Counted from the stretch's first letter, positions 18,802-39,346 are shown. The stretch is DNA of 64,000 bases from Candidatus Saccharimonadota bacterium (GCA_029260875.1 JAJDCL010000011.1:62401-126400); one strand, 5' to 3'. The notes: generated by a model not told the origin, from the letters alone. A program made the numbers and translations.

Positions 18802-18802
18802 T

Positions 18803-20026
18803 ATGCCAACATTTAAATACACAGCAATTGACAAAACAGGTAAGCGTGTAACAGGCACGACCGAAGCAGCAAGCGCTGCTGTTGCAACCGCCAATCTTAA
18901 GTTGCGTGAACTGCGCCCTATTGAGGTTGCGCTAGCAAAAAATGGAAGCCTGGTGAGCAAACTGCCCTTTGGGCCGGGCAAGAAAAAAGTTAAGTCTAAA
19001 GACCTGGTGGTTTTCACCAGACAGCTTGCGACTATGATAAATGCCGGCGTGCCACTTGTAAGGTCCTTAGCAACTTTGCAGGTTCAAACCGAAAACCCAA
19101 ACTTTAAACAGCATATAGTTGAGGTCACTAAGGAAGTAGAGGGTGGTGCAACTTTTGCAGATGCACTTGAAAGGCATTCGGTAGTATTTTCGCCGATTTA
19201 TATAAATATGGTCAGGGCCGGTGAAGCGGGCGGTATTTTAGACGCAATCCTGAAGAAGCTCGCCACTCAGCAAGAAAAAGACGAAAAGATCAAAGGTAAG
19301 TTTAAAAGCGCCATGACATATCCGATCATCCTGCTGACCATTACTACGCTGGTTTTTTTGGCATTGATGGTCTTTGTTATGCCAAAGATAGGTAAAATCA
19401 TTCAGGATCTGGCCGGGCCTAGTGCCGAGTTACCCCCCCTCACAATAGTTATGCTTGGCATCAGCAACTTCCTGGTTGCTAGGTGGTATGTACTCCTTGG
19501 CATTGGCGTAATTGCGGGCGCAGTACTATCACGATACATAAGCACGCCAGGGGGGCGACGAAAGAAGGATAAGATTCTTTTGAAATTGCCTGTTATCAAA
19601 ACTGTTATCAAAAAGGTCGCTATAGCCCGTTTTGCCCGTATTTTTGCATCGCTTATGAGTGCTGGAGTTACGGTTATTGATTCGATTGAGGTAACTGCTA
19701 AAGCTATTGGCAACAGTGTGATTGAAGAAGAACTAATGGCAGCCTCTAAAACAGTCGCAAATGGCCAGCAACTATCCGTACCAATTAGTGCAAGCAAGGT
19801 CTTCCCCCCTATTGTGGGGCAGATGCTATCTGTAGGCGAAGAAACCGGTAAGACAGATGAGATCCTGGTGAAAGTTGCTGATTTTTACGAGGATGAAGTG
19901 GATGTAGTTGTAGATAGTCTTAGCTCTATACTGGAGCCTATTATGATCGTAGTAATGGGTACATTGGTCGGTCTTATAGCTGCCAGCGTGATCGGGCCAA
20001 TCAGCAATCTTTCCAATCAGATATAG
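18803..20026 (+). CDS. pilC: Type IV pilus platform protein PilC (GspF family)
   Basis: Two GspF repeats, the N-terminus MPTFKYTAIDKTGK, and TM segments. It is adjacent to pilB. Confidence 0.9.
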   Translation: MPTFKYTAIDKTGKRVTGTTEAASAAVATANLKLRELRPIEVALAKNGSLVSKLPFGPGKKKVKSKDLVVFTRQLATMINAGVPLVRSLATLQVQTENPNFKQHIVEVTKEVEGGATFADALERHSVVFSPIYINMVRAGEAGGILDAILKKLATQQEKDEKIKGKFKSAMTYPIILLTITTLVFLALMVFVMPKIGKIIQDLAGPSAELPPLTIVMLGISNFLVARWYVLLGIGVIAGAVLSRYISTPGGRRKKDKILLKLPVIKTVIKKVAIARFARIFASLMSAGVTVIDSIEVTAKAIGNSVIEEELMAASKTVANGQQLSVPISASKVFPPIVGQMLSVGEETGKTDEILVKVADFYEDEVDVVVDSLSSILEPIMIVVMGTLVGLIAASVIGPISNLSNQI

Positions 20027-20192
20027 CACACCACCCGAAGACCTTACACATATAGACCTAATAAATAAACCACACCTAATGCACAGGGAAAAGTATTGCG
20101 CGATATGAAACATGTGATAGTGTATAACCATAAGCTGTAAAAAGCTTGAAATACTAATTACAATTTACAAATAAGAAGGGTGGGCATTATAA

Positions 20193-20681
20193 ATGTTCAA
20201 GACACTTAAAAAAGCACAAGACGGCTTCACGATTATCGAACTTTTGATCGTAATCGCGATTATTGCTGTTTTGGCAGGGCTCGTACTTAACAACTTCCAG
20301 GGTGCACAGGCAAAGGCTCGTGACACACAACGTTTAACCGACATAAACAACATACACAGTAAACTAGAAGAATTTTACAACGAGAAGGGTTTTTACCCTG
20401 ATACTTTTGAAGCAGATGATTTCCCTGGTATCGACGAGGATAGCCTAATAGACCCTGATGGTGCAGAGATAGTCAAAAGCGCACCAGTGGCTAACGAAGC
20501 TGGAGCTACAGTAGAACCGGACAGTATAGACGAGTACATTTACATACCATTCCCTACGAGCTGTACTACTGTAAACGAAGACTGTGAGGGTTATGTCCTA
20601 AAGTCTTATATCGAAAAGCCAACCGCTTCTACGACAAACCCATATGTCAAAAAGGGATTGAACAACCCTGCAACCCCTTAG
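20193..20681 (+). CDS. pilA: Type IV major pilin (prepilin with class III signal)
   Basis: KKAQDG|FTIIELLIVIAIIAVLAGLV is a prepilin cleavage and methylation motif with Glu5. Confidence 0.8.
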   Translation: MFKTLKKAQDGFTIIELLIVIAIIAVLAGLVLNNFQGAQAKARDTQRLTDINNIHSKLEEFYNEKGFYPDTFEADDFPGIDEDSLIDPDGAEIVKSAPVANEAGATVEPDSIDEYIYIPFPTSCTTVNEDCEGYVLKSYIEKPTASTTNPYVKKGLNNPATP

Positions 20682-20705
20682 TTTGAGCTTTTAAAAAGCT
20701 TTTCA

Positions 20706-20748
20706 GAGAACCCTGCCAAGTGCTGAAACGGCAGGGTTCTTTTGTTGT
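20706..20748 (+). terminator. Rho-independent terminator after the pilin gene
   Basis: agaaccctgcc / ggcagggttct is an 11 bp stem followed by tttgttgtt. Confidence 0.7.
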
Positions 20749-20787
20749 TGGTTATGCTATAATTTCTCTAAAGCAAAGTGGGCCTTA

Positions 20788-21849
20788 ATGAACAAAATCC
20801 TCTTTTATAAAGACAAAGCAGTATTTGGACTTGATATCGGCTTTAGCAGTATAAAAGTCATGCAGATTGAGCGTGTAGGCAAAAAACGTGTAGTCGGTGG
20901 CTACGGTGTGGTCAATTTTGACCCCAGCGCTGTCGTGGATGGTGTTATTAAGAACCCTGAACTGCTTGCAAAGTCAGCGTATGAGTTATTTAAGAAAAAT
21001 TTAGTTGGCGATATAACTACTCGTCGCGTTGCATTAGCTATCCCCGCTGTTCGCACATTTAACCGCACCGTGCAACTACCAAAGATGGGTCGTAAACAAC
21101 TGGATCAAGCTATCAGGCTAGAAGCAGAACAATACATTCCCCTCCCCCTAGATAGCCTGTACCTAGATTACGAGATAATAAGACAAACCGACGAAGCACT
21201 AGAGCTGCTGGTCGTCGCCACACCACGAACCATAATAGACTCTTACATATCATGGATTCGCCTAATAGGGCTAGAGGTGGCCGCCATTGAAACAACTATC
21301 GGTTCTGGCAGTCGGTTATTTGTCCAAGCAGAAGACAGTAGCGTACCTACTGTACTCATAGATTTTGGGTCAGTGTCTTCTGACATTACGGTCTACGATC
21401 AAACCCTCGTTGTAACCGGTACAGTGCCGGGCGGGGGTGATAGCTTTAGTAGCCTGATCGCTGACTCTTTAAACGTTACTAAGCAAGAGGCACACGTGAT
21501 CAAAACAAAATATGGCCTGGGGGTTAGCAAAAAACAGAAAGAAATATCCGACAGCCTTTCACCTCTCTTAGAGCAACACCTTAAAGAAATACGGCGCATG
21601 ATTCGTTACTATGAAGAACGGTCTGATACGGATCGCAAAATTGGCCAGGTAGTTACCATGGGCGGTGGGGCTAATATGCCAGGCCTGTCAGAGCACCTCA
21701 CAAATCAACTTCGCTTGCCGGTTCGGATGTGCAGCCCTTGGCAAAAGCTAAACTTTGGCGGGCTGCAGCCACCAAGCTCTGTGGAGAAGTCTATGTATAT
21801 AACGGTCGCTGGCCTGAGCCTAATAGAACCGGGCGAAATATACGCATGA
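20788..21849 (+). CDS. pilM: Type IV pilus assembly protein PilM (actin-like ATPase)
   Basis: FGLDIGFSSIKVMQIE and the actin/HSP70-fold pattern. It overlaps pilN with an ATGA junction. Confidence 0.85.
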   Translation: MNKILFYKDKAVFGLDIGFSSIKVMQIERVGKKRVVGGYGVVNFDPSAVVDGVIKNPELLAKSAYELFKKNLVGDITTRRVALAIPAVRTFNRTVQLPKMGRKQLDQAIRLEAEQYIPLPLDSLYLDYEIIRQTDEALELLVVATPRTIIDSYISWIRLIGLEVAAIETTIGSGSRLFVQAEDSSVPTVLIDFGSVSSDITVYDQTLVVTGTVPGGGDSFSSLIADSLNVTKQEAHVIKTKYGLGVSKKQKEISDSLSPLLEQHLKEIRRMIRYYEERSDTDRKIGQVVTMGGGANMPGLSEHLTNQLRLPVRMCSPWQKLNFGGLQPPSSVEKSMYITVAGLSLIEPGEIYA

Positions 21850-22448
21850 TAAATCTGTTACCGCCCGAACTCAAAGATACGTTATTATATGCGCGTCGCA
21901 ACCGCATGCTCGTTAAGTGGGTTGCTGCTTTCTTTATTGGTATGGTAGGTATAGGTGGCGTCATACTAGCTGGAGATATATACATAAATCAATCTGCGCA
22001 AGATTACAAGACGGGCGTAGAGCGTCAGAAAGCCCAACTAACCGAACAAAAGCTAGAAGAAACCAAACAACGAACCGAGGATATAAGCACAAGTACCAAG
22101 CTGGCCTTTCAGGTTTTATCGCGCCAGGTGTTGTTCTCGGAACTTTTACAGCAGACCGGTGCGGTAATGCCTTCAGGCGCAGCCTTGCAGTCACTCAGCA
22201 TAAGTAAGCTTGAGGGCGCTCTTGATCTTCAAGTGATAGCTGCAGATTACCAAACCGGCACACAAGTACAGGTCAACTTATCCGACCCACAGAACAAGAT
22301 TTTTGATAAAGCAGATATTGTCAGTATTACCTGTGCGGCCTCAGCGCCCGATAATCGCTACCCGTGCCAGGTGAGTATCCGCGCACTATTCTCTAAGGAC
22401 AGCACCTTCCTGTTTACCAACTTAGCAAAGGAGGGTAGTGCAAGATGA
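21846..22448 (+). CDS. pilN: Type IV pilus assembly protein PilN
   Basis: The internal start MINLLPPELKD (the INLLP motif) and a TM. The ATGA overlap with pilM is at 21846. Confidence 0.7.
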   Translation: MINLLPPELKDTLLYARRNRMLVKWVAAFFIGMVGIGGVILAGDIYINQSAQDYKTGVERQKAQLTEQKLEETKQRTEDISTSTKLAFQVLSRQVLFSELLQQTGAVMPSGAALQSLSISKLEGALDLQVIAADYQTGTQVQVNLSDPQNKIFDKADIVSITCAASAPDNRYPCQVSIRALFSKDSTFLFTNLAKEGSAR

Positions 22449-23071
22449 ACAGCAAGCGTCTCTTCTATACACTATGCATAATGCTGGTATTGTTGGGCGC
22501 CGCCAGTTTAGGTGTTGTTATTTTTGGCAATAGCTATATCAAGCAGCAGACACAGCACATTGTCGCCTTAAAAGCAGAGAGCTTGGCCTTGGATGAGCAA
22601 AGTCGCTCTCTCGTGCAAGCTAAAAAAGATATTGAAAAATACGAAGAGCTAGAGCGCATTTCAAAATCCATCGTTCCTCAGGAAAAAGATCAAGCCAGGA
22701 CGGTAAGAGAGATCATTGCGTTGGCCGAACAAAGCGGAGTGTCTATTTCCAGTGTCACCTTTCCTTCCTCAAATCTTGGGCAACCTACTGCCCGACCAGC
22801 AACCCCTGCGACAGGCAGTAGCACCCCTCCAGCATCCGCTACAACCCAAGTAAAGCCGGTGGAAGGAATCCCGAACGTGTACCAACTTGAGATCTCAATT
22901 CAATCGGATGCAGCCAAGCCGGTACCATATCAAAGTATGTTAATCTTCTTGTCAAAGCTAGAGCAAAATCGCAGAACAGCGCACATCACCAACCTATCGG
23001 TAACTCCGCACAACAACGATCGCAACCGTGTCACATTTAACCTAACCGTAAATGCATATATAAAACCATGA
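22445..23071 (+). CDS. pilO: Type IV pilus assembly protein PilO-like
   Basis: N-terminal TM and a coiled coil. It is translationally coupled to both neighbours. Confidence 0.55.
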   Translation: MNSKRLFYTLCIMLVLLGAASLGVVIFGNSYIKQQTQHIVALKAESLALDEQSRSLVQAKKDIEKYEELERISKSIVPQEKDQARTVREIIALAEQSGVSISSVTFPSSNLGQPTARPATPATGSSTPPASATTQVKPVEGIPNVYQLEISIQSDAAKPVPYQSMLIFLSKLEQNRRTAHITNLSVTPHNNDRNRVTFNLTVNAYIKP

Positions 23072-23367
23072 ATAAATACATCGGAATAATTACGACTAAA
23101 TTAGGCCCGCTCATAGAAATACTGCGACGCTATAGGGTGGCCGTTTTTATCATTTGTTTCTTGGGGATATATACGTTTTTAGTCATGCAGATTAATGTGC
23201 TGAGTAACAGAGAACCCGACCCGGCTACAATTAGCTCACAGCAGCAAACTACAAAAAGGCTGAGCATAGACCAAAGCTCCATTGACAGAATCCTTGAGCT
23301 AGAAGAACAAAATATTGATGTGAAGACACTGTTTGAACAAGCCCGTCAAAACCCCTTCAACGAATAG
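23068..23367 (+). CDS. Small membrane protein in the pilMNO operon (PilP-like?)
   Basis: ATGA overlap with the pilO stop and a single TM. Confidence 0.4.
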   Translation: MNKYIGIITTKLGPLIEILRRYRVAVFIICFLGIYTFLVMQINVLSNREPDPATISSQQQTTKRLSIDQSSIDRILELEEQNIDVKTLFEQARQNPFNE

Positions 23368-23378
23368 CTACTCCGGTA

Positions 23379-23993
23379 CTAATTGCCATAAAGTTTTAAG
23401 TTTTCTTCGTGTGCATGCACAATTGACTTAGAGGCAGCATATGGTTTTGGCACGTAACTAAAAGTATAGTTTTGTTGCTCGCCAGCTGTCTCCACCACCA
23501 AGGTCCCGTAATCGAATATGCGCGACAGGATACCAATCTGGCTAACGGTCACGTCCTGGACATCTCCAATGCTAAGTTGAGATATTTTTCTATCAAAGAT
23601 TGTTCTGTAGGTGACTTGGGTTAGTTTTTCGCTAGTCACAAGCACTACGTTGCTTTGGTATATGTACGCACCTAAAAAGGTGATTAGCAAGGTAAGTAGC
23701 GTAAGAAAGGTACCTAGTAAAATTAGTGGAGTGCGGAGTGGGGTTGTTGCCACACCGGTACTAAGTGGGTCGTTATCTAAAAAGAATGTAGCGCCAAAAA
23801 ACGCTATAACTAACATAGTAGCCACGAATAAGCCCGTAAGATAAATTAGGAACAACCCGAGCGGATGTTTACGAATCTCGCACACAAGCTTTTCGTCTTC
23901 GTCAAATTCAATAAGTTTAAACAGTTTTTGACCGACACCTGATAGATTAGCTGGCTGCATATGTACCATTATACCAGCCCTGATGGTATACAA
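23379..23993 (-). CDS. Membrane protein with a bacterial PH (bPH_2/DUF304-like) domain
   Basis: Two TM helices followed by a YdbT-like PH-domain pattern (VLVTSEKLTQVTYRTIFDRKISQLSIGDVQDVTVSQ). Confidence 0.45.
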   Translation of the reverse strand: MYTIRAGIMVHMQPANLSGVGQKLFKLIEFDEDEKLVCEIRKHPLGLFLIYLTGLFVATMLVIAFFGATFFLDNDPLSTGVATTPLRTPLILLGTFLTLLTLLITFLGAYIYQSNVVLVTSEKLTQVTYRTIFDRKISQLSIGDVQDVTVSQIGILSRIFDYGTLVVETAGEQQNYTFSYVPKPYAASKSIVHAHEENLKLYGN

Positions 23994-24004
23994 TAGACAA
24001 CAAC

Positions 24005-24415
24005 ATGCTTGTGTTTCGTAACAAACTCTTAAAAGAGTGGCAAGGTTTTACTATTATCGAACTATTAATAGTAATTGCGATATTTGCCATTGTTATGCCC
24101 ACGCTTGCAGCCGGGATAAATAACTTAACAGTATTAAATAATCGCTCTCGTGATTTAGCGCTTGCGAATTTGATCGCCGAAAGTAAGGCCGAGCAACTAC
24201 GCAATGCGGGCTATAATAGCCTTTCGCCAGGCACGGTGAGTTTTAGCGAGGACCTACCAGACGAATTGGCCCCGCCCAAAACTGGCACGTACACAGTTTC
24301 AACCCCAACCCCCGGTTTGGCAGAAATCTCTATTGAAATTAGCTACAGGGATTACAGCCAAACCAAGGTTGTAAAATACAAAACTGTAGTGAGCGAGCTG
24401 GGAGTTGGGCAATGA
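24005..24415 (+). CDS. Minor pilin or pseudopilin (prepilin-type N-terminal domain)
   Basis: KEWQG|FTIIELLIVIAIFAIV. Confidence 0.7.
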   Translation: MLVFRNKLLKEWQGFTIIELLIVIAIFAIVMPTLAAGINNLTVLNNRSRDLALANLIAESKAEQLRNAGYNSLSPGTVSFSEDLPDELAPPKTGTYTVSTPTPGLAEISIEISYRDYSQTKVVKYKTVVSELGVGQ

Positions 24416-25071
24416 AAAAACTCGGCCAAAACGGCGTAACAATCTTCGAACTTTTGATATCGGTTAGCATTGCAGCTATTCTCATCACTGTACTAGTGTC
24501 AGTTTCACTGGGTTTTTACGGCAGCACAATAAGAAGTCAAGTAACAGCAGAGATGGCTATTGACTCACATTTTATGTTACGAGCGATGGTAGAAGATTTG
24601 CGTTTAGGTCGCAACATAGGCGTAACTAGTGTCTTGGCTGACTCAAACGCTCCTAGCGGAGGCTGGGCGACCAGTGACGTTAATAATGTACTTATAATCA
24701 ATAGGCCCGCAACAACCGCAAGTAATGACATCATCTATGACAGCAGCACAGGATACCCCTACAATAATGAGCACATATACTTTATTACGGAGAATAAACT
24801 GCAGAAAAGATTGTTAAAAAATACCAGTGCCGCAGGCAATCACATCACTACTAGTTGCCCGTTATCAGCCTCAAGCAGCACCTGTCCATCTGATAGACTC
24901 TATTCATCATATGTTGATAACATGGCCTTCACATTCTATGATGACAATAATAATATTATAACTGATGTGGCCCTAGCACGGTCCGTAAACATAAACCTTG
25001 TAATGTCGCGCAAGATTTTTGGCAAAACAGTAACTTTTAATAACACAATTCTCACAAAGCTAAGGAACTAA
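24412..25071 (+). CDS. Minor pilin or pseudopilin
   Basis: QNG|VTIFELLISVSIAAILITVLV. It overlaps the upstream minor pilin gene by 4 nt. Confidence 0.6.
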   Translation: MKKLGQNGVTIFELLISVSIAAILITVLVSVSLGFYGSTIRSQVTAEMAIDSHFMLRAMVEDLRLGRNIGVTSVLADSNAPSGGWATSDVNNVLIINRPATTASNDIIYDSSTGYPYNNEHIYFITENKLQKRLLKNTSAAGNHITTSCPLSASSSTCPSDRLYSSYVDNMAFTFYDDNNNIITDVALARSVNINLVMSRKIFGKTVTFNNTILTKLRN

Positions 25072-25072
25072 G

Positions 25073-26518
25073 ATGAAGAACAAAAAACCAATACAGCACC
25101 AGCAACATGGCTTTATCATGCCCGTACTGTTATTTACTATAACGCTCATCGTAACAATGATGGCGTTTGTGGGCTCACTCTCACTCACCACCTATAACCT
25201 AGCCTCACGAGAAGCCTATAAGGTCAACGCCCAACTCGCTGCTGATGCCGGATTAGATGTAGGTATTCACGAGTTCAACCTGGATAATACATGGACGGGC
25301 ACAAGCAGCTCCGATCCGCACTGGTCAGGCGTGGGTGATGAAATAAACCTACTAGACACACCAAGCCTCCGCACTACTTATGAAACCGACATACTGCCAG
25401 GGGCAAGCGATGATCGTAGAATTATCGCGGTTATTGCACGGAGCTATTCGCCAAGTACTTCAGCTACGCCAAAAATCACCCGGCGTTACGAAGTTGATTT
25501 ACAATCTGTAACTAGTGGATATGGGCCTTCCTCTGTAGTGAGTGGTGTTGGCGGTCTAGTATTAAACAACAATGCCAAGATCACTGGAGGAGACGTTGTG
25601 GTAAATGGGACCATAGCCCTTGGGAACAATTCCCAAATCGGTTTGTCTTCTACACCTACAGATAACGCGGTTAATGTAAGAGTCTCGCACATCAACTGCC
25701 CAAACCCACCCGATAGCACATATCCTCGTACTTGTGCAGCAGGTGAAAACGGTGAGCCGATAACCATAGGAAGCAATGCAAAAATCTACGCTGATGTGCG
25801 GGCAACAAACCAAATCAGCGGATCAAGTATGTTTAACCCCGGCTTAGTTCCGAACCAGACCTTCCCTCCTGTTATTTTGCCAGATTATGATCGTCAAGCC
25901 CACAAGGATGCGGTGGCCGTCGAACGAGCCCCCAGCCACACCGATATATCGTGTGGCAGTAATGGCACGAAAACATGGCCCGAAAATGTCAAAATCACCG
26001 GGAACGTGAATCTTGGGAATAACTGCACCGTAACATTGTCGGGTAACGTATGGATAACTGGTAACCTAGGGTTTGGGAATAACGCAAAAATGAAGATCCC
26101 CAACTCCGTAGGCATCAACCCGCCCGTAATCATGGTTGACGGTTCTAATGGAGTTACATTTGGCAATAACGCCACGATACAAGCCAATAACGTCAAGACA
26201 GGGGCTTATATTATAAGCTATTGGAGCGCAGACAGTTCGTGTAGCCCGGAATGTATGAATGTAACAGGGGTAAACCTAGTCAACAGCCAGAATGTCGTAA
26301 AGATTAACTTAAGTAATAATGGCAGCGCCCCGGGAAGCATACTTTATGCTCGTTGGTCACGGGTTCGGGTTTCTAATAATGGCGCTGTTGGGGCACTAGC
26401 CGGTCAATCAATTGAGCTAGGCAATAATGCCGTTATTAACTTTACTTCATCTCTGCCCGGTAGCGATAACATGATCGTGACTTGGGTAAAACGCGGCTAT
26501 ATGCGTGTGTTTGAATAG
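25073..26518 (+). CDS. Large PilX-like minor pilin or pilus tip protein with a parallel beta-helix repeat region
   Basis: N-terminal prepilin-like hydrophobic segment (HG|FIMPVLLFTITLIVTMMAFVG). The C-terminal half has repeated GNN..I.G...V.G motifs (VKITGNVNLGNNCTVTLSGNVWITGNLGFGNNAKMKI). Confidence 0.55.
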   Translation: MKNKKPIQHQQHGFIMPVLLFTITLIVTMMAFVGSLSLTTYNLASREAYKVNAQLAADAGLDVGIHEFNLDNTWTGTSSSDPHWSGVGDEINLLDTPSLRTTYETDILPGASDDRRIIAVIARSYSPSTSATPKITRRYEVDLQSVTSGYGPSSVVSGVGGLVLNNNAKITGGDVVVNGTIALGNNSQIGLSSTPTDNAVNVRVSHINCPNPPDSTYPRTCAAGENGEPITIGSNAKIYADVRATNQISGSSMFNPGLVPNQTFPPVILPDYDRQAHKDAVAVERAPSHTDISCGSNGTKTWPENVKITGNVNLGNNCTVTLSGNVWITGNLGFGNNAKMKIPNSVGINPPVIMVDGSNGVTFGNNATIQANNVKTGAYIISYWSADSSCSPECMNVTGVNLVNSQNVVKINLSNNGSAPGSILYARWSRVRVSNNGAVGALAGQSIELGNNAVINFTSSLPGSDNMIVTWVKRGYMRVFE

Positions 26519-31941: not shown

Positions 31942-32349
31942 ATGAAACTATTTTGCTCAAATGCGTTCACTGGCGAAGATTTTGAAACGGTCAGTCGGCG
32001 GATGCAATTAGTGGTTGATGCTCTGAATAAATCAGGACATGCAGCCTATTGTCCCATATTTGACCCGCGTAAAATAGAATTGCAAGAACGGCAAGCTGCC
32101 AAAGAGATATTTGATTATGCCTTTCAGAACTTAGCTAAATGCGATGGTATGATAGCAATCGTTACTTCTGACAGAAAAAGCGAAGGTCAGCTAATGGAAA
32201 TTGGAGCAATCCTCGCTGCCAATAAGCCTTTGTATCTATTTGTTCACGATTCAGCAAGAAAGGCTCCTTCACATTTGCATAAACTAGCCGCAAAAGTTTA
32301 TATTTGGTCGTCAGACGAAGACTTAGCTAATAAGCTGGCTAATATATAG
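31942..32349 (+). CDS. Hypothetical protein, possibly with a nucleoside 2-deoxyribosyltransferase-like fold
   Basis: MKLFCSNAFTG...MEIGAILAANKPLYLF loosely fits the PF05014-like pattern. The stretch is visibly AT-rich. Confidence 0.3.
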   Translation: MKLFCSNAFTGEDFETVSRRMQLVVDALNKSGHAAYCPIFDPRKIELQERQAAKEIFDYAFQNLAKCDGMIAIVTSDRKSEGQLMEIGAILAANKPLYLFVHDSARKAPSHLHKLAAKVYIWSSDEDLANKLANI

Positions 32350-32367
32350 CGGCTTATTTAGAGCTAA

Positions 32368-32400
32368 TTTAGTTGCAATAGTTTGCACCTTGCTCCTCCA
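32368..32400 (+). repeat. 33 bp direct repeat, copy 1 (immediately 3' of the gene ending at 32349)
   Basis: tttagttgcaatagtttgcaccttgctcctcca is identical to 33009..33041. Confidence 0.8.
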
Positions 32401-32465
32401 CGGATGAACCTAGTTGAACTACTGCAACTAACCATTACAGTAGTTTTTCATTTATAATCAACGAT

Positions 32466-33005
32466 ATGAAACCACGCTTTGTATATATTCACGGAAATCA
32501 GTCAACTCATTGGTCATTCGCGTGGGCTACATGGTTAAAAAATGAACTCGAGAAACTAGGCTATGAGACTTTCTTTGAGACGATGCCTGATTCTATCATT
32601 GCTCGCTCCGAGTATTGGCTTCCTTTCTTAAAAGACCACGTTAAAGTCGGAGAGATTGACGTTATAGTCGGCTGGTCATCTGGAGCGGTAGCTGCCATGC
32701 GTTACGCAGAAGAAAATAAGCTTCTCGGCTCCATTTTAGTTTCGCCCTGTTATACGGACTTGGGCGACGACATGGAAAAACAAAGCGGCTACTATGATAA
32801 GCCCTGGAAATGGGATAGCATCAAATCAAACCAGAAGAAAATAGCTCTATTCTGGGGCGATGATGACCCTTATATTCCGCAGTCAGAGTTTAAGTTTATT
32901 GCAGAGCAATTAGCGCCAGAACAAATAAAAGTAGCTGTTGGAAAGCATTTTGTTGAACAATCGGAATTCCCCGAAGTTCTGCAATATATAAAGCAGAATT
33001 ATTAG
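32466..33005 (+). CDS. YdeN/RBBP9-family alpha/beta serine hydrolase
   Basis: YIHGNQSTHWSFAWATWL (HG...HW motif), nucleophile elbow VGWSSGA (GxSxG), and C-terminal Asp/His segments. Confidence 0.65.
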   Translation: MKPRFVYIHGNQSTHWSFAWATWLKNELEKLGYETFFETMPDSIIARSEYWLPFLKDHVKVGEIDVIVGWSSGAVAAMRYAEENKLLGSILVSPCYTDLGDDMEKQSGYYDKPWKWDSIKSNQKKIALFWGDDDPYIPQSEFKFIAEQLAPEQIKVAVGKHFVEQSEFPEVLQYIKQNY

Positions 33006-33008
33006 CTA

Positions 33009-33041
33009 GTTTAGTTGCAATAGTTTGCACCTTGCTCCTCC
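33009..33041 (+). repeat. 33 bp direct repeat, copy 2, followed by a 16 bp-stem hairpin at 33040..33078
   Basis: An identical 33-mer, then ccatataaaagatcta/taggtcttttatatgg. Confidence 0.8.
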
Positions 33042-33343
33042 ATATAAAAGATCTACCCTGCGTAGGTCTTTTATATGGTTGTCTTGGTCGACTTGAACCC
33101 TTGACAGAGATTTTTCTTTAGAAAAATATCGTAGTCGTGAATCGGCGGAGCGAAAGCACACGCAAGTACTTGCACCGAGCATGATTGAGCGGAGAAGGCC
33201 TAAAGCCGCTGTCCCACTGGCCTTACAGTGTAATGACCTCACTGCTAAGTGGGGTCTTTTCATTGGGCCAGAGGCTTGCCTGAAAGAGATAAAAGCCTTA
33301 AGCTTAGTGTGAAGATTTTAATTTAACAATAAAGGAATTCTAC

Positions 33344-33553
33344 ATGTCATTCTTTTCAAAGCTTTTTGGCAAAAAATCTAATAATTCTGCAGCCCCAAGT
33401 GCAGATGTTACACCAACACAAACATTTACTGAACCGCCTGCAACTCCGGTCACGCCACCACAACCCATACCAACACCGTTAGAGCAATCAGAACCGCAAA
33501 TTCCAGAGCAAGACGAAACTCCAGGCCAAACACCACTCGCGCCAAGTGCCTAG
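33344..33553 (+). CDS. Small Pro/Thr-rich hypothetical protein
   Basis: aaaggaattctacATG precedes the start. The composition is low-complexity (PPATPVTPPQPIPTP). Confidence 0.25.
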   Translation: MSFFSKLFGKKSNNSAAPSADVTPTQTFTEPPATPVTPPQPIPTPLEQSEPQIPEQDETPGQTPLAPSA

Positions 33554-34029
33554 TGATTCTTACTGTGTCCGCGTGAGCGATTCGTGGCCCAAAGGGTAAC
33601 GAGTTGAATAAATACTACTGCACCTACAATTGCCTCGCTACCCTCAAGCAAGCGCTGTCCAGCGTGTATACTACGCACTTCTTGCTGCAAACCTTCCGGT
33701 AGTAGGGGCAACGCAAATGCAGCCAGCACAAAACCAGTTATTAAAAACGGAATTATGTAAAGAAAGAGTCTCCCCTTACTCAATGTGTTGCGTAAAAAAA
33801 CAGCAGTCAAAATAACCGGCACCAATAAAAGCGCAAGTTCTGAATATGCCAGCACCGATTCTCGCCTAGTTACGAGCCTGGTTACTAGCTCTGTATCGTC
33901 ACTAAAGTAACGGGCCAATAACTCGCCAGCCAGCATACTGAAAAATAGGTATGAAGAATTAACCCTGAAAATAATGCCGAGCAACAGCGGCAACCCTAGG
34001 ACTATGCCCAGAATAATATAAGCAACCAT
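33550..34029 (-). CDS. Polytopic hypothetical membrane protein
   Basis: Internal start MVAYIILGIVLGL and about four TM segments. Confidence 0.4.
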   Translation of the reverse strand: MVAYIILGIVLGLPLLLGIIFRVNSSYLFFSMLAGELLARYFSDDTELVTRLVTRRESVLAYSELALLLVPVILTAVFLRNTLSKGRLFLYIIPFLITGFVLAAFALPLLPEGLQQEVRSIHAGQRLLEGSEAIVGAVVFIQLVTLWATNRSRGHSKNH

Positions 34030-34051
34030 ATGCCAATAATAGCATAAGGGT

Positions 34052-34531
34052 TTAGAGGGGCAGGTATTGTCCCGTGAACAAGCCAGCCTTATCGGCTGTT
34101 CCCGCCAAAACCTCCACAACAAACTTTCCGTCTGTGCAAAAAGTTTCAGGATAGGTTTCTGGACCTACGTTTTTCTTTATACTCACAATCTTTCCCCTTT
34201 CATTAAGCCAGATAATGTCTAAACTTAAATGCATATCTTTCATCCACATACACTGCTTAGCGGACTGGTCAAACACGAAAAGCATGCCTTGGGTCGGCGC
34301 CATGTTTTTCCGGTCAGAAAGACCCTGTACTCGTAAAGCCTCTGACTCAGCCTTTTCTAAAACAACACATGTGGTTTTGGGTGGCCTCATTGTGTCGGGG
34401 ATTTTAAAGGCACAGTTTTCGCCGTACCTGTGCGTAAAGTTCAAGTAAGCATACAGCCCGACAGTACCAACCGCCAAGCTAATAAGTATTATGGAAACAG
34501 CTGCGTTATTAGCTTTCTTCCACCCAAGCTT
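34052..34531 (-). CDS. DUF192 (COG1430) domain protein
   Basis: MLFVFDQSAKQCMWMKDMHLSLDIIWLNERGKIVSIKKNV...FVVEVLAG is the DUF192 signature. The start MKLGWKK at 34531 abuts the rimK stop. Confidence 0.6.
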   Translation of the reverse strand, partial: KLGWKKANNAAVSIILISLAVGTVGLYAYLNFTHRYGENCAFKIPDTMRPPKTTCVVLEKAESEALRVQGLSDRKNMAPTQGMLFVFDQSAKQCMWMKDMHLSLDIIWLNERGKIVSIKKNVGPETYPETFCTDGKFVVEVLAGTADKAGLFTGQYLPL

Positions 34532-34538
34532 CATGCCT

Positions 34539-35441
34539 TTAAGCCCCGACCCGATCCTTACGTCGTTTCCCGCGCGCGTTTTGTTCAATATAATCAACGA
34601 TCGCACTTGCAACGTTACGGCCGGTTACTTTTTCAATACCAAATCCTGGGCTAGAATTAACCTCTAACACCAAAGGCCCGCGATCACTTCGCATCATATC
34701 TACACCACAAATGGTTAGGCCCATGGCTTTTGCAGCCTTCTGAGCGGTTTTGCGCTCTTCATCAGTTAATTTTATGGACGTTCCTTCACCACCCTGATGC
34801 AAGTTAGACCTGAAATCATCGTCCAGACTTTGGCGCTTCATACTAGCTACTACCTTGCCACCTACTACAATTGCACGTATATCGGTGCCTGCACTCTCTG
34901 CTATATATTCTTGGACCAAAAAGCTTACACCCTCAACATAGAAAGCCTGCATTACTGCCTTTGCCGCCTTGTTAGTTTCCGCAAGCACAACGCCATTACC
35001 ATGAGTGCCACGCGCTACCTTAATAACCAAGGGGGCGCCGCCAGCTAGCTGGATAACGTCGTCAAGGTCGGCCGTCTCACGAGCAAATACAGTCTTAGGG
35101 ATGCCTACGCCTGCGCGAGCTAACAGTTGGGTACTTCGCAACTTATCGCGTGAGCGCACAATAGAGATCGAACTAGAAGTCGTAAATACACCCTGCATTT
35201 CAAATTGTCGCACAATAGAAGTACCGTACTTAGTAAGACTTGCGGCAATTCGCGGAATAATTACATCAACGCCACCGATTTCTTTTCCTTCGTAACGAAT
35301 TACAGGATTACCACTTTCGACGGTGACATAACATTTGGCATAGTTAATCACTCTTACGCTGTGGCCACGGAGCTTAGCTTCCTCTTTAAGCCTCTTTGTA
35401 GAGTAGTTGCCCGGACCCTTCGAAAGTATGGCTATATTCAT
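34539..35441 (-). CDS. rimK: RimK-family alpha-L-glutamate ligase (ATP-grasp)
   Basis: MNIAILSKGPGNYSTKRL...VIKVARGTHGNGVVLAE...LVLEVNSSPGF. Confidence 0.85.
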   Translation of the reverse strand: MNIAILSKGPGNYSTKRLKEEAKLRGHSVRVINYAKCYVTVESGNPVIRYEGKEIGGVDVIIPRIAASLTKYGTSIVRQFEMQGVFTTSSSISIVRSRDKLRSTQLLARAGVGIPKTVFARETADLDDVIQLAGGAPLVIKVARGTHGNGVVLAETNKAAKAVMQAFYVEGVSFLVQEYIAESAGTDIRAIVVGGKVVASMKRQSLDDDFRSNLHQGGEGTSIKLTDEERKTAQKAAKAMGLTICGVDMMRSDRGPLVLEVNSSPGFGIEKVTGRNVASAIVDYIEQNARGKRRKDRVGA

Positions 35442-36025
35442 GTCTCTAAATCCTCCTCGTCTTCTGGCGTCATGATACCTTTAAGGCTTTTTAGTGCCAT
35501 CCGGTTAATTGAGGTCTGGCTGACATCTACTAGAAAACGTTTTTTCAACGCATGTCGGCCGATTAATATCGGATAAATATTATTAGCCCGGTCGCTTAAA
35601 GTAAAAGATGTGCTAAAAATCTTCGGCCCGATTTTAATTTTCAGCTTAACTTCATAGCGCGTTTCTACGTCTCCCATAGAATTTTTAATGACCAGGCTTC
35701 TGAACTCATCTGTTTTAAGGGGGCGCATAACCGGTGAGCAAGGATGGCCAAGCAGATTGCATCTAAGCCACTCTTTACCTTCGGTTTTAACCAACTTAAT
35801 ATTTTGCGCATGTATGGATGATCTAAAGGCGCCAGTATCTATTTTTGCCGGCAGCTCAAGAGCAATGCCGACAATGTCAATCAGCTCAGCGCGTCCAATA
35901 ATAACTGGGTGGCTTTTAGTCATAGTTGTGTTTAACTTAAAATTACTGGTTAGTGGTATTGTAGCCATATATAATACCAAAGTAGTATATCCTATAATTA
36001 TAGCATTTATGTTTGAAGAAGTCAA
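35438..36025 (-). CDS. RimB-like retropepsin-type aspartic peptidase (PF05618), RimK-associated
   Basis: AKIDTGAFRSSIHA is the DTGA aspartyl-protease motif of the RimK-associated protease family. It overlaps the rimK start by 4 nt. The start may be the internal MTKSHPVIIG at 35923. Confidence 0.6.
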   Translation of the reverse strand: MTSSNINAIIIGYTTLVLYMATIPLTSNFKLNTTMTKSHPVIIGRAELIDIVGIALELPAKIDTGAFRSSIHAQNIKLVKTEGKEWLRCNLLGHPCSPVMRPLKTDEFRSLVIKNSMGDVETRYEVKLKIKIGPKIFSTSFTLSDRANNIYPILIGRHALKKRFLVDVSQTSINRMALKSLKGIMTPEDEEDLET

Positions 36026-36947
36026 TAACTATTACCTCTCCCGCATGGCCGATTTGCCTTTTGAAAAACAGTTTCATTTTGCTTCCAGGTTATGGCTGTG
36101 GACCGGCAAAAAGACATATGCTGATATTCTGTTACGCCTCAAACCTCAATTTTGCGACGATGGCAGCCCTGATGCTGTTAATAAAGTTCTGGGCGATTTA
36201 CTAGCCAGTCAAAACTCAGACTTTGGCTCCAAAAATGCCGCAGTGGAGAGAGCCCCATACTTTGCCCATTATCCGTTATTGCGCCAAGTCTTACCGCTGT
36301 TATTCCGTCTTCTCTTTATGAAGACAATTTATAATATTGATGCCCGCCGAGAGTTAAAGAATCATGTAGATCTTGATGCGGTGGATAAATTAGCACTAGA
36401 GCTCGCCAATGACCGCGAGGCAATTGCAATCCTATCCACTTACGCCTGTAATTTCTTTTATCTCTGGCATAGCTTTTTTAAGGAAAGCCCGAAGGATATA
36501 CCCGTTTTGCAAATGTATGAGATCGGGCTTACAGCGTATGACTTCAGTCTGACTCATCGGAAATTACAATTTTATTTGTACACGCATTGTATAATCGGTG
36601 ATTCGTACTTTTACAAACGCAACTTGCCATTAGAAAATTTGCAGGTTTATCGAAACATGTGTGAAAATCTGGAAAATTATTTATCCGCAAACTTTAGGGA
36701 TATCAACCTTGATAATAAATGTGAGTTTATAGTTGCTTGTTCGATAGCAGGCTTCAGTTCAAAATTGAAAAGCGCAGTGCATGATGAGGCTTCTAGGTCG
36801 ATGTCACCGAATGGTAATTTTATTATTGACCGGCATAACAATAATCCGCAGGCTGGTAAAATAACCCCAGAAGAATCAGAACACCGGAACGTCCTTCTGA
36901 TAATGTCTTCAACGGACTTTAAGCCTTTTGATCAAGTAGTCGGCTAA
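36009..36947 (+). CDS. Hypothetical protein (no recognisable motif); AT-rich
   Basis: Internal Met start MFEEVNNYY at 36009, a long ORF, and convergent 29 nt overlap with the ATP-grasp gene. Confidence 0.4.
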   Translation: MFEEVNNYYLSRMADLPFEKQFHFASRLWLWTGKKTYADILLRLKPQFCDDGSPDAVNKVLGDLLASQNSDFGSKNAAVERAPYFAHYPLLRQVLPLLFRLLFMKTIYNIDARRELKNHVDLDAVDKLALELANDREAIAILSTYACNFFYLWHSFFKESPKDIPVLQMYEIGLTAYDFSLTHRKLQFYLYTHCIIGDSYFYKRNLPLENLQVYRNMCENLENYLSANFRDINLDNKCEFIVACSIAGFSSKLKSAVHDEASRSMSPNGNFIIDRHNNNPQAGKITPEESEHRNVLLIMSSTDFKPFDQVVG

Positions 36948-37824
36948 AGTATTCATCGACCAACTTTCTCTTTTCTTCGAGCAGTGCACCTGTACGCAAT
37001 TGTGGCTGTGAATTAATCTCCAAGAAGTACAGTTGCTGGGTCTCCAGATTAGGCATTAAATCTATCCCACATATATTAAGTTGGAGCCTGTCACTAATCT
37101 TTCGCGCGTCTTCCAGGGTTTTTTGAGTCAGTATATTGTCTTTTTTTGTAGCCACCGCACCTTTGGAGGTGTTGTTTAGGTGGGTGTCGCTGCTACCTCG
37201 TCTTTCAAACATAAGTAGCGACTCACCAATCAACAGCAATCGGTAATCGCGATCATTCGGGCAGTACTCTTGTGCAAGAAAATCCACCGTATATTCATCT
37301 ACAGTATGATGTTTGGCTTCGTCTGGTGATTTAATCAGGTAGTTTGAGTCGCCATGTGAGCCTACATTAGTTTTTAAAATGTACGGTGTCCCAAAATGGT
37401 GCTCAGCCTGATAAATCAGTCGTTCTTTGTTGACACAATAGATGGTTTTTAGAAAGGTAACTTTTTCTTCCAGAAATATAATCGACTGCGCAAATTTGGT
37501 GCCCGGATAATATAAAGAGCAGTCATTTACGCAATCAATATTGTTCCACATGCAGTATCTACTCAAGTAATAAGCCTGCGCACTGTTAAGCCTCATTTTG
37601 GGGTCGCGTATGAATATACTGTCCATGTTCTTAGCGTCAATGTTATTTAGCATGTCAAACACATCAAAACGCCCGGGCATCACCATAAAAGCAAGTTGAT
37701 CGAGGTAGGTTTTATAAACTGTCGCCTTGTCACCAAGAGTCTCGGCTAAGTAAGCGGCAAAGTCCCGCAAGGATTGCTCGGCTTGCTCATCAATCTGCAT
37801 GCCACCAACTATCAGAATTTTCAT
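36919..37824 (-). CDS. ATP-grasp ligase of uncertain specificity
   Basis: The C-terminus ICGIDLMPNLETQQLYFLEINSQPQL is the ATP-grasp GxDxxxxxxxxxYxLEVNxxPG block. There is a central Lys/Gly ATP-binding region. Confidence 0.5.
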   Translation of the reverse strand: MKILIVGGMQIDEQAEQSLRDFAAYLAETLGDKATVYKTYLDQLAFMVMPGRFDVFDMLNNIDAKNMDSIFIRDPKMRLNSAQAYYLSRYCMWNNIDCVNDCSLYYPGTKFAQSIIFLEEKVTFLKTIYCVNKERLIYQAEHHFGTPYILKTNVGSHGDSNYLIKSPDEAKHHTVDEYTVDFLAQEYCPNDRDYRLLLIGESLLMFERRGSSDTHLNNTSKGAVATKKDNILTQKTLEDARKISDRLQLNICGIDLMPNLETQQLYFLEINSQPQLRTGALLEEKRKLVDEYFSRLLDQKA

Positions 37825-37999
37825 TGTTAATAGAGTACCATGGGCAGGTACTTATCGTGCGTTTTTGACCCGTAGATATGCAAAAGCTATTGCTGTGAAA
37901 AGAATCAGCATAAGCATGACTACCATGGCAATAAAGCCGTTTTGTTGGCCGTGTAAATCTTTCATCTTAAGCTTATTATATAGTAAGAAGCACTCGTTT

Positions 38000-39346
38000 T
38001 TATTTCTTAGCTGGCGGAAGTTTGCCGCCAGATTCTTCATTGTAGAGGGCTTGGCTGCCGAATGACTCGGGGTGTTGATTGGCTAGCTCAAACATATCAG
38101 GCGTGTTCTTATCATCAATGTTTTTGTCGCCATGAGCTATGCGCTCAGCCTGCTCTTTTCTAATATCGCCCCAAGTCTGTTTGATCGCCAAGCCAGATAT
38201 GGGCTGAGCAGCATGATGCGTTTTACTAGGCGCAGCGACCACGGGGGGCTGTGGAGCCATTACCGTTTTAGCCGTTAAGGTTGGGGGTGGCGGCAAAGGC
38301 ACGGGCTGCACCGGTGCTTGGGGCGCTGGTGTTTGTGACGTAATAGTGGCTACAGGTTCAAGGTCCGGATCATCTCTGGCTGGCAGTTTGTTAGAGTGGG
38401 GTCGGTTTTTGGTTTTGCGCCTTCGGTAATATAAAAAGAATATTCCATCCATCAGAAGAATCAAAGCACCCAGTATTGCCACGGTTGGTATGGAACCGTC
38501 TTTGTTGTGTACCTGTTCCTCAGAAGATTGTCCATTTAAAAGGTCACTTATCGTAGGCTCTTCGTCTGTTGGGGTGCTATCGGTAGCGGTGGCTTCATCG
38601 GATAATAAGCCCTGAGGAGCACTATCGCCTTCCGGCGAGCTTGGCAAAGCAGAGGGGGGCTGCCCTGAGTCTAACGGCGCACTAGGGCTAGAAGGGTTGG
38701 ATGGTCCTGAAGACGAAGAAGTGGGGGGAGAGGCGGGAGGCGCCGGAGACGAGGGAGGAGAGGGCGCGGGCGAGGGTGACGGCGAAGGGGCTGGTGCAGC
38801 TGGACCGGTAATTGTTATTGAGGCTGAAAGGTTTGATACTGGGTAATATTCGGGTCTGCTTCTCCCCTCGTATGCAAGTGCGCTACCAGTCAGGTTAGTT
38901 GTATGAGTCCCAAATACTGACTTGGCTGTGAGCCTGATGTTGGCGAGGTTAAAAAAACCGTCCGTGCCGCCGCTGTCAGTGCTTTCATATTCGAAAATAA
39001 CAGAACTAGGTGTCACCTGCTGCTGAACAATACGGAAGTCACTACCCCCATTACTGATGGATGTAAAGCTGAGCTTACTCGAATCAAAGTTGACTTGAAC
39101 AGACCCGCCGTTTACGTCTTTGGTTCCACTATTTAGTTGCACACTTACTGTTCTAGCTTGGTCAGGACTCGCACTTTGAGTACTGGGTGAGAGCGAAATA
39201 CCAATAAAAGGGGCAGCCAACAGCTGGACTAAGCCAACGGCCGTCATAATCACACCGAAGCATAAACCAAACACTAAACTGCGTCGCAAGTGTACGTGCA
39301 GTTTGCGGTGCTGCAACACCATTTTTGGCTTGTGGTTTTTACGCAT
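38000..39346 (-). CDS. Bitopic membrane protein with an N-terminal extracellular Ig/cohesin-like domain, Pro-rich linkers and a cytoplasmic tail
   Basis: Signal anchor, then TVSVQLNSGTKDVNGGSVQVNFDSSKLSFTSISNG, then a PAPSPSPSPAPSPPSSP linker, then a TM (TVAILGALILLMDGIFFLYY) followed by RRRKTK. Confidence 0.45.
   Translation of the reverse strand: MRKNHKPKMVLQHRKLHVHLRRSLVFGLCFGVIMTAVGLVQLLAAPFIGISLSPSTQSASPDQARTVSVQLNSGTKDVNGGSVQVNFDSSKLSFTSISNGGSDFRIVQQQVTPSSVIFEYESTDSGGTDGFFNLANIRLTAKSVFGTHTTNLTGSALAYEGRSRPEYYPVSNLSASITITGPAAPAPSPSPSPAPSPPSSPAPPASPPTSSSSGPSNPSSPSAPLDSGQPPSALPSSPEGDSAPQGLLSDEATATDSTPTDEEPTISDLLNGQSSEEQVHNKDGSIPTVAILGALILLMDGIFFLYYRRRKTKNRPHSNKLPARDDPDLEPVATITSQTPAPQAPVQPVPLPPPPTLTAKTVMAPQPPVVAAPSKTHHAAQPISGLAIKQTWGDIRKEQAERIAHGDKNIDDKNTPDMFELANQHPESFGSQALYNEESGGKLPPAKK

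Follow-up and report, generated by a model that had tools for sequence, protein, structure and literature searches.

We estimate a probability of about 0.55 that a 3.8 kb block of patescibacterial DNA encodes one conserved system for the ATP-dependent tailing of a protein or peptide acceptor with amino acids, most likely alpha-linked glutamate, and for the proteolytic trimming of those tails. The block occupies positions 34,052 to 37,824 of a 64,000-nucleotide stretch from Candidatus Saccharimonadota bacterium (GCA_029260875.1 JAJDCL010000011.1:62401-126400), which we refer to at its full length as the window. The original prediction, made from the sequence alone, had named five open reading frames (ORFs) in this block: a RimK glutamate ligase, a PF05618 retropepsin with the motif AKIDTGA, a DUF192 protein, a protein of no recognised family (here UNK312) and a second ATP-grasp ligase (here AG2). 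All five are present where it placed them, as judged from the ORF map and from domain scans. The RimK/retropepsin half belongs to a known kind of system, and the pairing of AG2 with UNK312 appears to be the new part.

The system would consist of two divergently transcribed modules, one running from retropepsin through RimK and DUF192 to a protein with four transmembrane (TM) segments, and the other comprising UNK312 and, convergent with it, a tiny TM ORF followed by AG2. In the mechanism we propose, RimK would polymerise L-glutamate onto a C-terminal carboxylate, and a dimeric aspartic peptidase would trim the tails back and may modulate RimK. The acceptor could be ribosomal protein S6, free poly-alpha-glutamate or, given the DUF192 and membrane proteins, an envelope-directed polymer. 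AG2 would act as a second ligase in a fixed pair with UNK312, which would prepare, cap or remove what AG2 ligates, whether by hydrolysis, by editing or by preparing a substrate. RimK and AG2 would then be the writers and the retropepsin an endoproteolytic eraser, with UNK312 as the catalytic partner of AG2 and not an adaptor. A precedent for two such opposing activities in one pair is the bifunctional glutathionylspermidine synthetase/amidase, in which a ligase is fused to the opposing hydrolase. The tailing-and-trimming reading follows from the motifs and structural relatives of AG2 taken together with the biochemistry of RimB, which cuts poly-alpha-glutamate tails and stimulates RimK (PMC11957791).

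The evidence that binds the two modules together comes from other genomes. A pattern search in which each GTDB species was represented by a single genome gave 80 loci, which were compared by tblastn and ORF clustering; as the scan was limited by its pattern, the prevalence figures that follow are lower bounds. Gracilibacteria recode UGA, and since the two loci from this group (L070 and L076) were read with table 11, the wrong code, their maps cannot be relied on and were set aside. In Saccharibacteria the genes lie between YebC-ComEC on one side and DnaJ-DnaK on the other, in the order 4-TM protein, DUF192, RimK and retropepsin, then a divergent UNK312, then a convergent AG2. About 45 Saccharibacteria species genomes have the retropepsin-RimK pair with its divergent UNK312 and convergent AG2. 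Context was counted in the 56 loci that have 3 kb or more of sequence on each side. A retropepsin lies within 4 kb or is fused in 46 of these, even where another ATP-grasp replaces RimK, and the orthologous RimK lies within 4 kb in 40. An AG2-type ATP-grasp is fused to UNK312 in 14 of the 56, and a non-RimK ATP-grasp adjoins UNK312 in 29 and lies within 4 kb in three more. Of the 10 loci that look like exceptions, several have another type of ATP-grasp beside UNK312 (ATP-grasp_3, ATP-grasp_4/LAL_C2 or a weak RimK-like protein). On these gene maps UNK312 almost always adjoins an AG2-type ATP-grasp, with the same partner kept across phyla.

The neighbourhood comparison that had been suggested as a check found the block conserved, and the fusions, which the original prediction had missed, are its most telling result. 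In Moranbacteria, Parcubacteria/Paceibacteria, Minisyncoccota and related phyla, a protein of ~590 amino acids combines a RimK-type ATP-grasp as its N-terminal half with UNK312 as its C-terminal half; the 590-aa representative from locus L041 matches PF08443 at 1.6e-27 and carries a DUF3541-like domain. One Saccharibacteria subclade has a triple fusion of ~760 aa in which ATP-grasp, UNK312 and PF05618 retropepsin are joined, with RimK directly after it (seven species genomes: L050, L059, L063, L067-L069 and L074; the L063 protein has 758 aa). Independent gene calls among 144 library representatives include 34 double and eight triple fusions, which shows that the fusions are not artefacts of our ORF calling, and a search with the L041 protein brought up over 100 proteins of ~590 aa, which come from numerous sources. 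Their annotation goes no further than 'RimK family ligase' or 'ATP-grasp domain-containing protein'. All 59 of the 59 fused ATP-grasp domains score higher against an AG2 profile (median 100-108 bits) than against a Saccharibacterial RimK profile (55-61 bits), so the fusion partner is of the AG2 lineage. As a fusion of AG2, UNK312 and protease stands in one operon with RimK, both divergent halves would belong to one system, and of the evidence available this arrangement speaks most strongly for a substrate shared by the two halves. The conserved order and the fusions together support the view that all 3.8 kb form one conserved functional unit, whose genes are not side by side by chance. In the literature searched, the pairing of AG2 with UNK312 and the fusions of the two appear to be undescribed, a 2009 amidoligase survey lying outside that search.

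Some metagenome-assembled genomes labelled Bdellovibrionales or Pseudomonadales carry a cluster of the type found in the candidate phyla radiation (CPR), with a RuvC-like gene, a 7TM gene and fused AG2::UNK312 (L027, L056, L060, L066, L075, L077 and L080); YebC precedes the cluster in L056 and L080. These labels are probably taxonomic errors or reflect mis-binned CPR contigs.

AG2 is an ATP-grasp enzyme of the RimK/LysX type and not a Ddl or GshB paralogue. It matches PF08443 with 59 bits (cut-off 21; E=6e-16) and also PF02655, with no match to PF14397. Against the RimK family model TIGR00768 it scores 64.6 bits, below the cut-off of 143.4, and its NCBIfam matches to MptN, CofF and LysX are weak (38.6 bits for LysX, cut-off 275.6). 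These scores place AG2 in a paralogous family distinct from RimK. Searched against the PDB, a profile of the AG2 family has RimK, LysX and ArgX as its best matches, with the RimK entries 5zct, 4iwx and 7qys at E~1e-15. The ATP-grasp motifs are intact: in the alignment, the invariant residues K110, K151, Q185, D193, R195, D255, E269 and N271 coincide with RimK's motifs for nucleotide and Mg binding. The structural model (pLDDT 95.3) superposes full-length, with ArgX, LysX, RimK and synapsin as top folds, and it also resembles the graspetide macrocyclases MdnC and PsnB. All of the nearest structural relatives have carboxylates of a protein or peptide as their targets: RimK acts on S6, LysX and ArgX on LysW, and MdnC and PsnB on precursors of ribosomally made peptides with post-translational modifications (RiPPs). 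An N-terminal extension of about 110 aa had been attributed to AG2, but the full-length fold match and the alignment with RimK (residues 33-278 against 26-269, hhalign 99.4%; 301 and 300 aa, colinear) identify this stretch as the pre-ATP-grasp domain.

The partner of AG2 has no such pedigree. A word-indexed search found 303 relatives of UNK312, nearly all full-length and of ~312 aa, and an exhaustive search of 1.84 billion representatives with the family profile found 545 clusters at E<=1e-3. The family is therefore small, and its recovered members mark it as patescibacterial. The AF2 model is all-alpha with 16 helices (pLDDT 96, pTM 0.93). Neither the PDB nor BFVD yielded a Foldseek match at E<=0.001; the fold that ranked first, a thioester domain from complement C5 (TMq ~0.4, E 0.6), is too weak a match to be taken as a relative. 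The family profile gave chance-level matches only against PDB sequences, and NCBIfam, PADLOC and PHROGs gave nothing. The window protein matches PF12060 (DUF3541) below threshold (15.6 bits, cut-off 28.2), and 34 of 52 family members match it at E<=0.01 in their C-terminal half (best E=4.5e-9), which suggests a distant relationship only. DUF3541 is itself an uncharacterised family, on which our literature search found no papers.

Conservation within the UNK312 family is nevertheless strong at particular sites. In 233 representatives that are <60% identical to one another, with a median identity of 35% to the window protein, about 20 polar positions are conserved at >=93%: H23, R27, R81, D135, S143, N148, Y151, Y189, T192, H193, Y202, D235, K237, E239, E260, S264 and the run E291-H292-R293-N294. 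These residues fall at i/i+3-4 spacing along helices or at helix N-termini, as would be expected of a ligand- or metal-binding pocket. UNK312 is probably a metal-dependent enzyme that binds anionic groups, and there is a real chance that it represents a new enzyme fold and activity. The suspicion of an uncharacterised modification pathway has thus survived the refuting conditions set for it, in that AG2 is neither Ddl nor GshB, its partner is constant and UNK312 has no housekeeping identity.

The other module is easier to name. RimK matches PF08443 (1.2e-57; 195 bits, cut-off 21), PF18030 (6.4e-35; 119.8 bits, cut-off 26.4) and TIGR00768 (247 bits, above the cut-off of 143.4), with a secondary match to PF14397 (6.2e-11), and is 55-82% identical across the Saccharibacteria loci. 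The retropepsin matches PF05618 at E=2.4e-25, retains the active-site motif, and has 9g58, 9g59 and 2pma as its nearest PDB chains. Hydropathy of its 161 residues reveals no hydrophobic N-terminal segment and no signal peptide, and the protein is predicted to be cytoplasmic. Its C-terminus is acidic in the window (…TPEDEEDLET; 35438-35500); we rejected this tail as a RimK substrate, since the tails of 40 homologues are mostly of mixed charge and acidic in a minority only.

The DUF192 protein (PF02643, 90.7 bits, cut-off 27) is related to PDB entry 3pjy (E=7.7e-12); both 3pjy and a second relative, 3m7a, are structures of proteins without assigned function. Its single hydrophobic segment, at residues 8-34 by hydropathy, would serve as an N-terminal TM anchor and probably places the protein outside the cytoplasm. 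DUF192 occupies the same position in 28 related loci and is a frequent but not constant member of the cluster. The 4-TM protein has four hydrophobic segments by hydropathy and no Pfam match; its homologues (clusters c5 and c17, hhalign 97.5%) lie downstream of RimK/DUF192 in 33 + 8 related loci. Homology to the RloB 7TM protein was rejected, the hhalign probability against CPR PF14402 7TM_transglut proteins being 9%. The 4-TM protein and its c5 homologues share a conserved His/Lys-rich C-terminal tail (…KHHK, …HGKHK), which could bind metal or a polyanion.

Several observations weigh against a single tailing-and-trimming system as we have drawn it. RimK scores 325 bits against the S6--L-glutamate ligase equivalog NF007764, narrowly below the cut-off of 331, and rpsF was not found by tblastn with E. 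coli S6 in the window or in 82 related loci. The retropepsin had been equated with RimB; its arrangement, with a 4-nt overlap into RimK, is indeed that of rimB-rimK, but it reaches 59.1 bits against NCBIfam RimB (NF052261, cut-off 200) and a higher 80.9 bits against RloA3, which is again under the cut-off (210). UNK312 stands without a recognised neighbour in a few loci (L019, L073 and also L070, the last in wrong-code translation). Neither a recognisable catalytic motif nor, in the PDB, BFVD and PDB profile searches, a structural relative was found for it, and we infer its enzymatic role from conservation alone. In transposon sequencing of the genetically tractable Southlakia epibionticum, SEML1_0779-0782, which include homologues of the membrane protein, RimK and retropepsin together with a hypothetical protein, were all non-essential in co-culture (PMC10633639 Table S1); the system would then be conditional and not core. 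The same locus (SEML1_0779-0784) is without UNK312 and AG2 at this site and has instead a 1053-aa hypothetical protein followed by DnaJ, which means that the second module is dispensable in some lineages.

The separability of the modules in Southlakia also lends weight to an alternative that we consider unlikely, in which two unrelated systems are merely syntenic: RimK and the retropepsin would modify S6 as they do in Pseudomonas, and AG2 and UNK312, with no functional tie to the protease, would make or modify a small molecule, for instance by glutamylation of a cofactor or metabolite of the MptN/CofF kind or as a dipeptide of the L-amino-acid-ligase kind. The weak NCBIfam matches of AG2 to MptN, CofF and LysX would fit this, as would the Moranbacteria-type AG2::UNK312 proteins without orthologous RimK and the extra ATP-grasp_4/LAL_C2-type ligases near the cluster in some genomes. 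It is harder to reconcile with the triple fusion that lies directly upstream of RimK in the seven species genomes and is present in eight library representatives, with the presence of a retropepsin in 46 of 56 loci even where RimK has been replaced, and with the protein or peptide substrates of all the nearest structural relatives of AG2.

Somewhat more doubtful is an envelope polymer, for which the ligases would build a poly-alpha-glutamate-like chain, the 4-TM or 7TM_transglut protein and DUF192 would export or anchor it, and the retropepsin and UNK312 would set its length. The membrane protein and the TM-anchored DUF192 are co-operonic with RimK, Moranbacteria-type clusters with PF14402 and ATPgrasp_ST::retropepsin adjoin a gene read by eye as PBP1A-like, RimK makes free poly-alpha-glutamate under stimulation by RimB (PMC11957791), and the genetics of Rlo offer a parallel (PMC12239564). 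On the other hand, the window retropepsin is without the signal peptide of RloA, the 4-TM protein is not detectably related to the RloB 7TM protein, neither a transglutaminase domain nor a transporter signature was identified, and many loci do not have DUF192. We regard as very improbable a RiPP-like pathway in which the 37-aa ORF that heads the AG2 operon in the window and 25 other loci would be a precursor or scaffold modified by the ATP-grasps and matured by the retropepsin. The constant position of this ORF and the likeness of the AG2 fold to MdnC and PsnB would suit such a pathway; the peptide, however, is essentially one TM helix with no conserved Asp/Glu, Ser/Thr/Lys core or C-terminal residue, it was not found in the fusion-type phyla, and graspetide ligases do not use the acceptor chemistry of RimK.

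Within the tailing-and-trimming reading, a more far-reaching version is tentative, and we would give it somewhat less than an even chance. AG2 and UNK312 would form an undescribed two-part enzyme, a ligase of the RimK/LysX clade joined to a new all-alpha and probably metal-dependent fold. Together with RimK and the retropepsin, they would constitute a Patescibacteria-wide 'protein tail code' or poly-amino-acid system whose chemistry goes beyond that of RimK and RimB (a second residue type, capping or branching) and which has been kept in ~1-Mb genomes since before the candidate phyla split.

The features of the block and its immediate surroundings are collected in Table 1.

Table 1. Genes and control element of the block, in window coordinates.
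Feature	Position	Strand	Basis or remark
4-TM membrane protein, 160 aa	33550..34032	minus	hydropathy; last gene of retropepsin-RimK operon
DUF192 protein, ATG start	34052..34534	minus	PF02643, E=6.5e-26
RimK-type alpha-L-glutamate ligase, 300 aa, ATP-grasp and pre-ATP-grasp domains	34539..35441	minus	PF08443, PF18030
Retropepsin-like aspartic peptidase, 161 aa	35438..35923 (alternative start 35968)	minus	PF05618, DTG motif
Putative sigma-70-like promoter, TTGACT, 17 nt, TG-n-TATAAT	35997..36025	minus	consensus match only
UNK312, 312 aa, all-alpha	36009..36947	plus	conserved family, predicted model
AG2, second RimK/LysX-type ATP-grasp ligase, 301 aa	36919..37824	minus	PF08443, 6e-16
37-aa single-TM ORF (MKDLHGQQNGFIAMVVMLMLILFTAIAFAYLRVKNAR)	37852..37965	minus	first gene of operon ending in AG2

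The genes of the retropepsin operon are tightly packed. Overlaps of 4-8 nt had been reported among the retropepsin, RimK and DUF192 genes; this is correct for retropepsin and RimK, whose stop and start share ATGA (4 nt), whereas RimK and DUF192, the latter taken from its ATG start, are separated by 4 nt and DUF192 and the 4-TM gene by 19 nt, with no overlap at either junction. UNK312 diverges from this operon, and its 3' end runs into that of AG2 in a convergent overlap of 29 nt, as originally described. Such an overlap is present in 36 of 39 related Saccharibacteria loci (median 11 nt, up to 62 nt). It leaves no space for a terminator and implies overlapping antisense transcripts, and it may be the relic of an inverted gene pair that was formerly co-directional or fused. 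The divergent half had also been called AT-rich; it is mildly so (GC 0.39-0.43, against 0.47-0.48 for RimK) and stays inside the normal range of the window.

The best of 10 promoter-like sites in 33400-38100 matches the consensus at 11 of 12 positions and has an extended -10 element. From this sigma-70-like consensus match only, it is predicted to drive the operon of retropepsin, RimK, DUF192 and membrane protein. It lies within the first codons of UNK312, which would make it overlapping control DNA common to both units. A TTG at 36025 was rejected as the start of the retropepsin, the hexamer there being the -35 box of the promoter. On the flanks, YebC, ComEC, DnaJ and DnaK were recognised from their conservation in tblastn comparisons, and Pfam was run on the ORFs from 31942 to 39346. 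We also rejected an anti-phage defence system, as the block has no PADLOC match, is syntenic between YebC/RuvC and DnaJ/DnaK, and has no island-like composition.

Outside this core, the accessory genes vary among lineages. The Moranbacteria-type order is (YebC), RuvC-like gene, PF14402 7TM_transglut, ATPgrasp_ST::retropepsin, RimK-like ATP-grasp, AG2::UNK312 and PBP1A-like gene, with a RuvA-like gene after the last in L056 and L080; the RuvC-, RuvA- and PBP1A-like labels are by-eye readings (the PBP1A-like translation has 840 aa) and not the outcome of domain scans. Non-Saccharibacteria CPR genomes thus have a compact Rlo-like module made of a PF14402 protein without transglutaminase domain and a 467-aa ATPgrasp_ST with a C-terminal retropepsin (L041, 4045-6135; also L027, L042-L044, L053, L056, L064 and L066). 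A PF08014 MATCAP-like metallocarboxypeptidase (E=3e-27) lies upstream of UNK312 in L079 (6239-7207) and in L077; it sits where other lineages have the retropepsin, which suggests that the trimming peptidase is swappable. A class-I glutamine amidotransferase/Peptidase C26 gene (gamma-glutamyl-hydrolase-like) is inserted ahead of AG2 in the operon of some Saccharibacteria (L016, 9902-10510; L040, L058 and L065). Extra ATP-grasps lie upstream of AG2 in other loci, and an L-amino-acid-ligase-type ATP-grasp is among the accessory genes. By their domain assignments these variable genes would fit a theme of amino acid tail metabolism.

A search for a small substrate ORF had been proposed together with the original prediction. 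Homologues of the 37-aa single-TM ORF are present in 25 related loci (L001, 4571-4684; L016, 9795-9905; L082, 2233-2346; and 22 others), always at the head of the AG2 operon and 2-202 nt from the next gene, and the gene was also called by an independent gene caller on contig L082. They share the pattern …QxGFI[PT][ML]…hydrophobic…[YF]x[RK]Vxx[AV]…. The peptide is a TM helix with no acidic residues and no conserved core, and its C-termini vary (…KNAR, …KANQ, …AQAQH). A small ORF was found, but its variable, non-acidic C-termini led us to reject it as a C-terminally tailed substrate and to keep it solely as the low-probability precursor weighed above. Fusion-type phyla, in which the ORF was not found, nevertheless keep AG2::UNK312. 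Its 'QNG-F' resembles the prepilin leader of the organism's own pilin (…AQDGFTIIELLIV, ORF 20193-20681), without Glu5 and without a globular domain.

Two other features of the window lie outside the block. One is a minus-strand gene (38000-39346) between the cluster and DnaJ. Its 448-aa product has an N-terminal and a second TM segment, a cohesin-like domain that matches weakly (E=0.0016) and a long linker rich in Pro and Ser; the related loci do not conserve it. A type IV pilus-like block on the plus strand (17047-26518) has PilB- and PilC-like ORFs and several ORFs with the GFT(I/L)IELL prepilin motif, all recognised by eye and from the N-terminal sequences alone.

Although the genomes of Patescibacteria are drastically reduced, many of their lineages keep five to eight genes at this locus, with up to four ATP-grasp ligases. 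Such retention makes it likely that the system matters for episymbiotic physiology, be it in the tuning of ribosomes, in tolerance of stress or in the cell envelope. Through the fusions, clean tests become possible for the UNK312/DUF3541-like domain, which has no assigned function and is ignored by current annotation. If UNK312 were a hydrolase or transferase of a new kind with glutamyl tails as its target, it would be a missing 'eraser' or 'editor' of bacterial protein polyglutamylation. The locus extends the biology of RimB and Rlo retropepsins beyond Proteobacteria, and its natural chimeras suggest which proteins act together.

Among known systems, the rimABK operon of Pseudomonas (PMC11957791, PMC7343187) is similar in that a PF05618 retropepsin with a DTG motif lies directly upstream of rimK and both proteins are predicted to be cytoplasmic. 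The window operon differs in running on into DUF192 and the 4-TM protein, in its retropepsin scoring under the RimB equivalog threshold, and in the second ATP-grasp and novel all-alpha protein that synteny and fusion tie to the pair. RimA, an EAL c-di-GMP phosphodiesterase, is absent from the ORFs between 31942 and 39346 and from the YebC/ComEC/DnaJ/DnaK flanks; it is missing from some Pseudomonas rim loci as well (PMC12239564). RimBK hybrids such as Desulfotalea psychrophila DP2392 (PMC11957791) likewise have a retropepsin covalently fused to an ATP-grasp ligase, an arrangement that implies that both activities are directed at one substrate. The CPR fusions have another order, with ATP-grasp, UNK312 (~310 aa) and a C-terminal retropepsin, and their ATP-grasp is of the AG2 type and not RimK; in the window organism the genes are unfused.

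The RloABC system of Pseudomonas aeruginosa, which affects osmotic tolerance, comprises secreted retropepsins, a 7TM inactive-transglutaminase protein and an ATP-grasp (PMC12239564). The window shares the combination of retropepsin, ATP-grasp and membrane protein, and sister CPR phyla have PF14402 7TM_transglut and ATPgrasp_ST in the AG2::UNK312 cluster itself. In the window, however, the protease has no signal peptide, the membrane protein shows no relationship to RloB, a transglutaminase domain is missing, and the ATP-grasps belong to the RimK type and not to the ATPgrasp_ST/TIGR02291-like type of RloC, with TIGR02291 scoring far below its cut-off; by these domain assignments the window falls outside the definition of Rlo. 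The LysX/ArgX-LysW systems provide the best structural matches to AG2, with ATP-grasps that ligate an amino acid to the C-terminal glutamate of a protein; genes for the biosynthesis of lysine or arginine are not present near the block, nor is a small acidic carrier resembling LysW. On eukaryotic tubulin, TTL/TTLL ATP-grasp ligases add Glu or Tyr to the tails and MATCAP/CCP peptidases remove them. The context here is bacterial and the likeness holds at the level of domain families only, but the logic of ligase and peptidase is the same, some family members weakly match PF03133 TTL, and L077 and L079 carry a MATCAP-like peptidase of their own.

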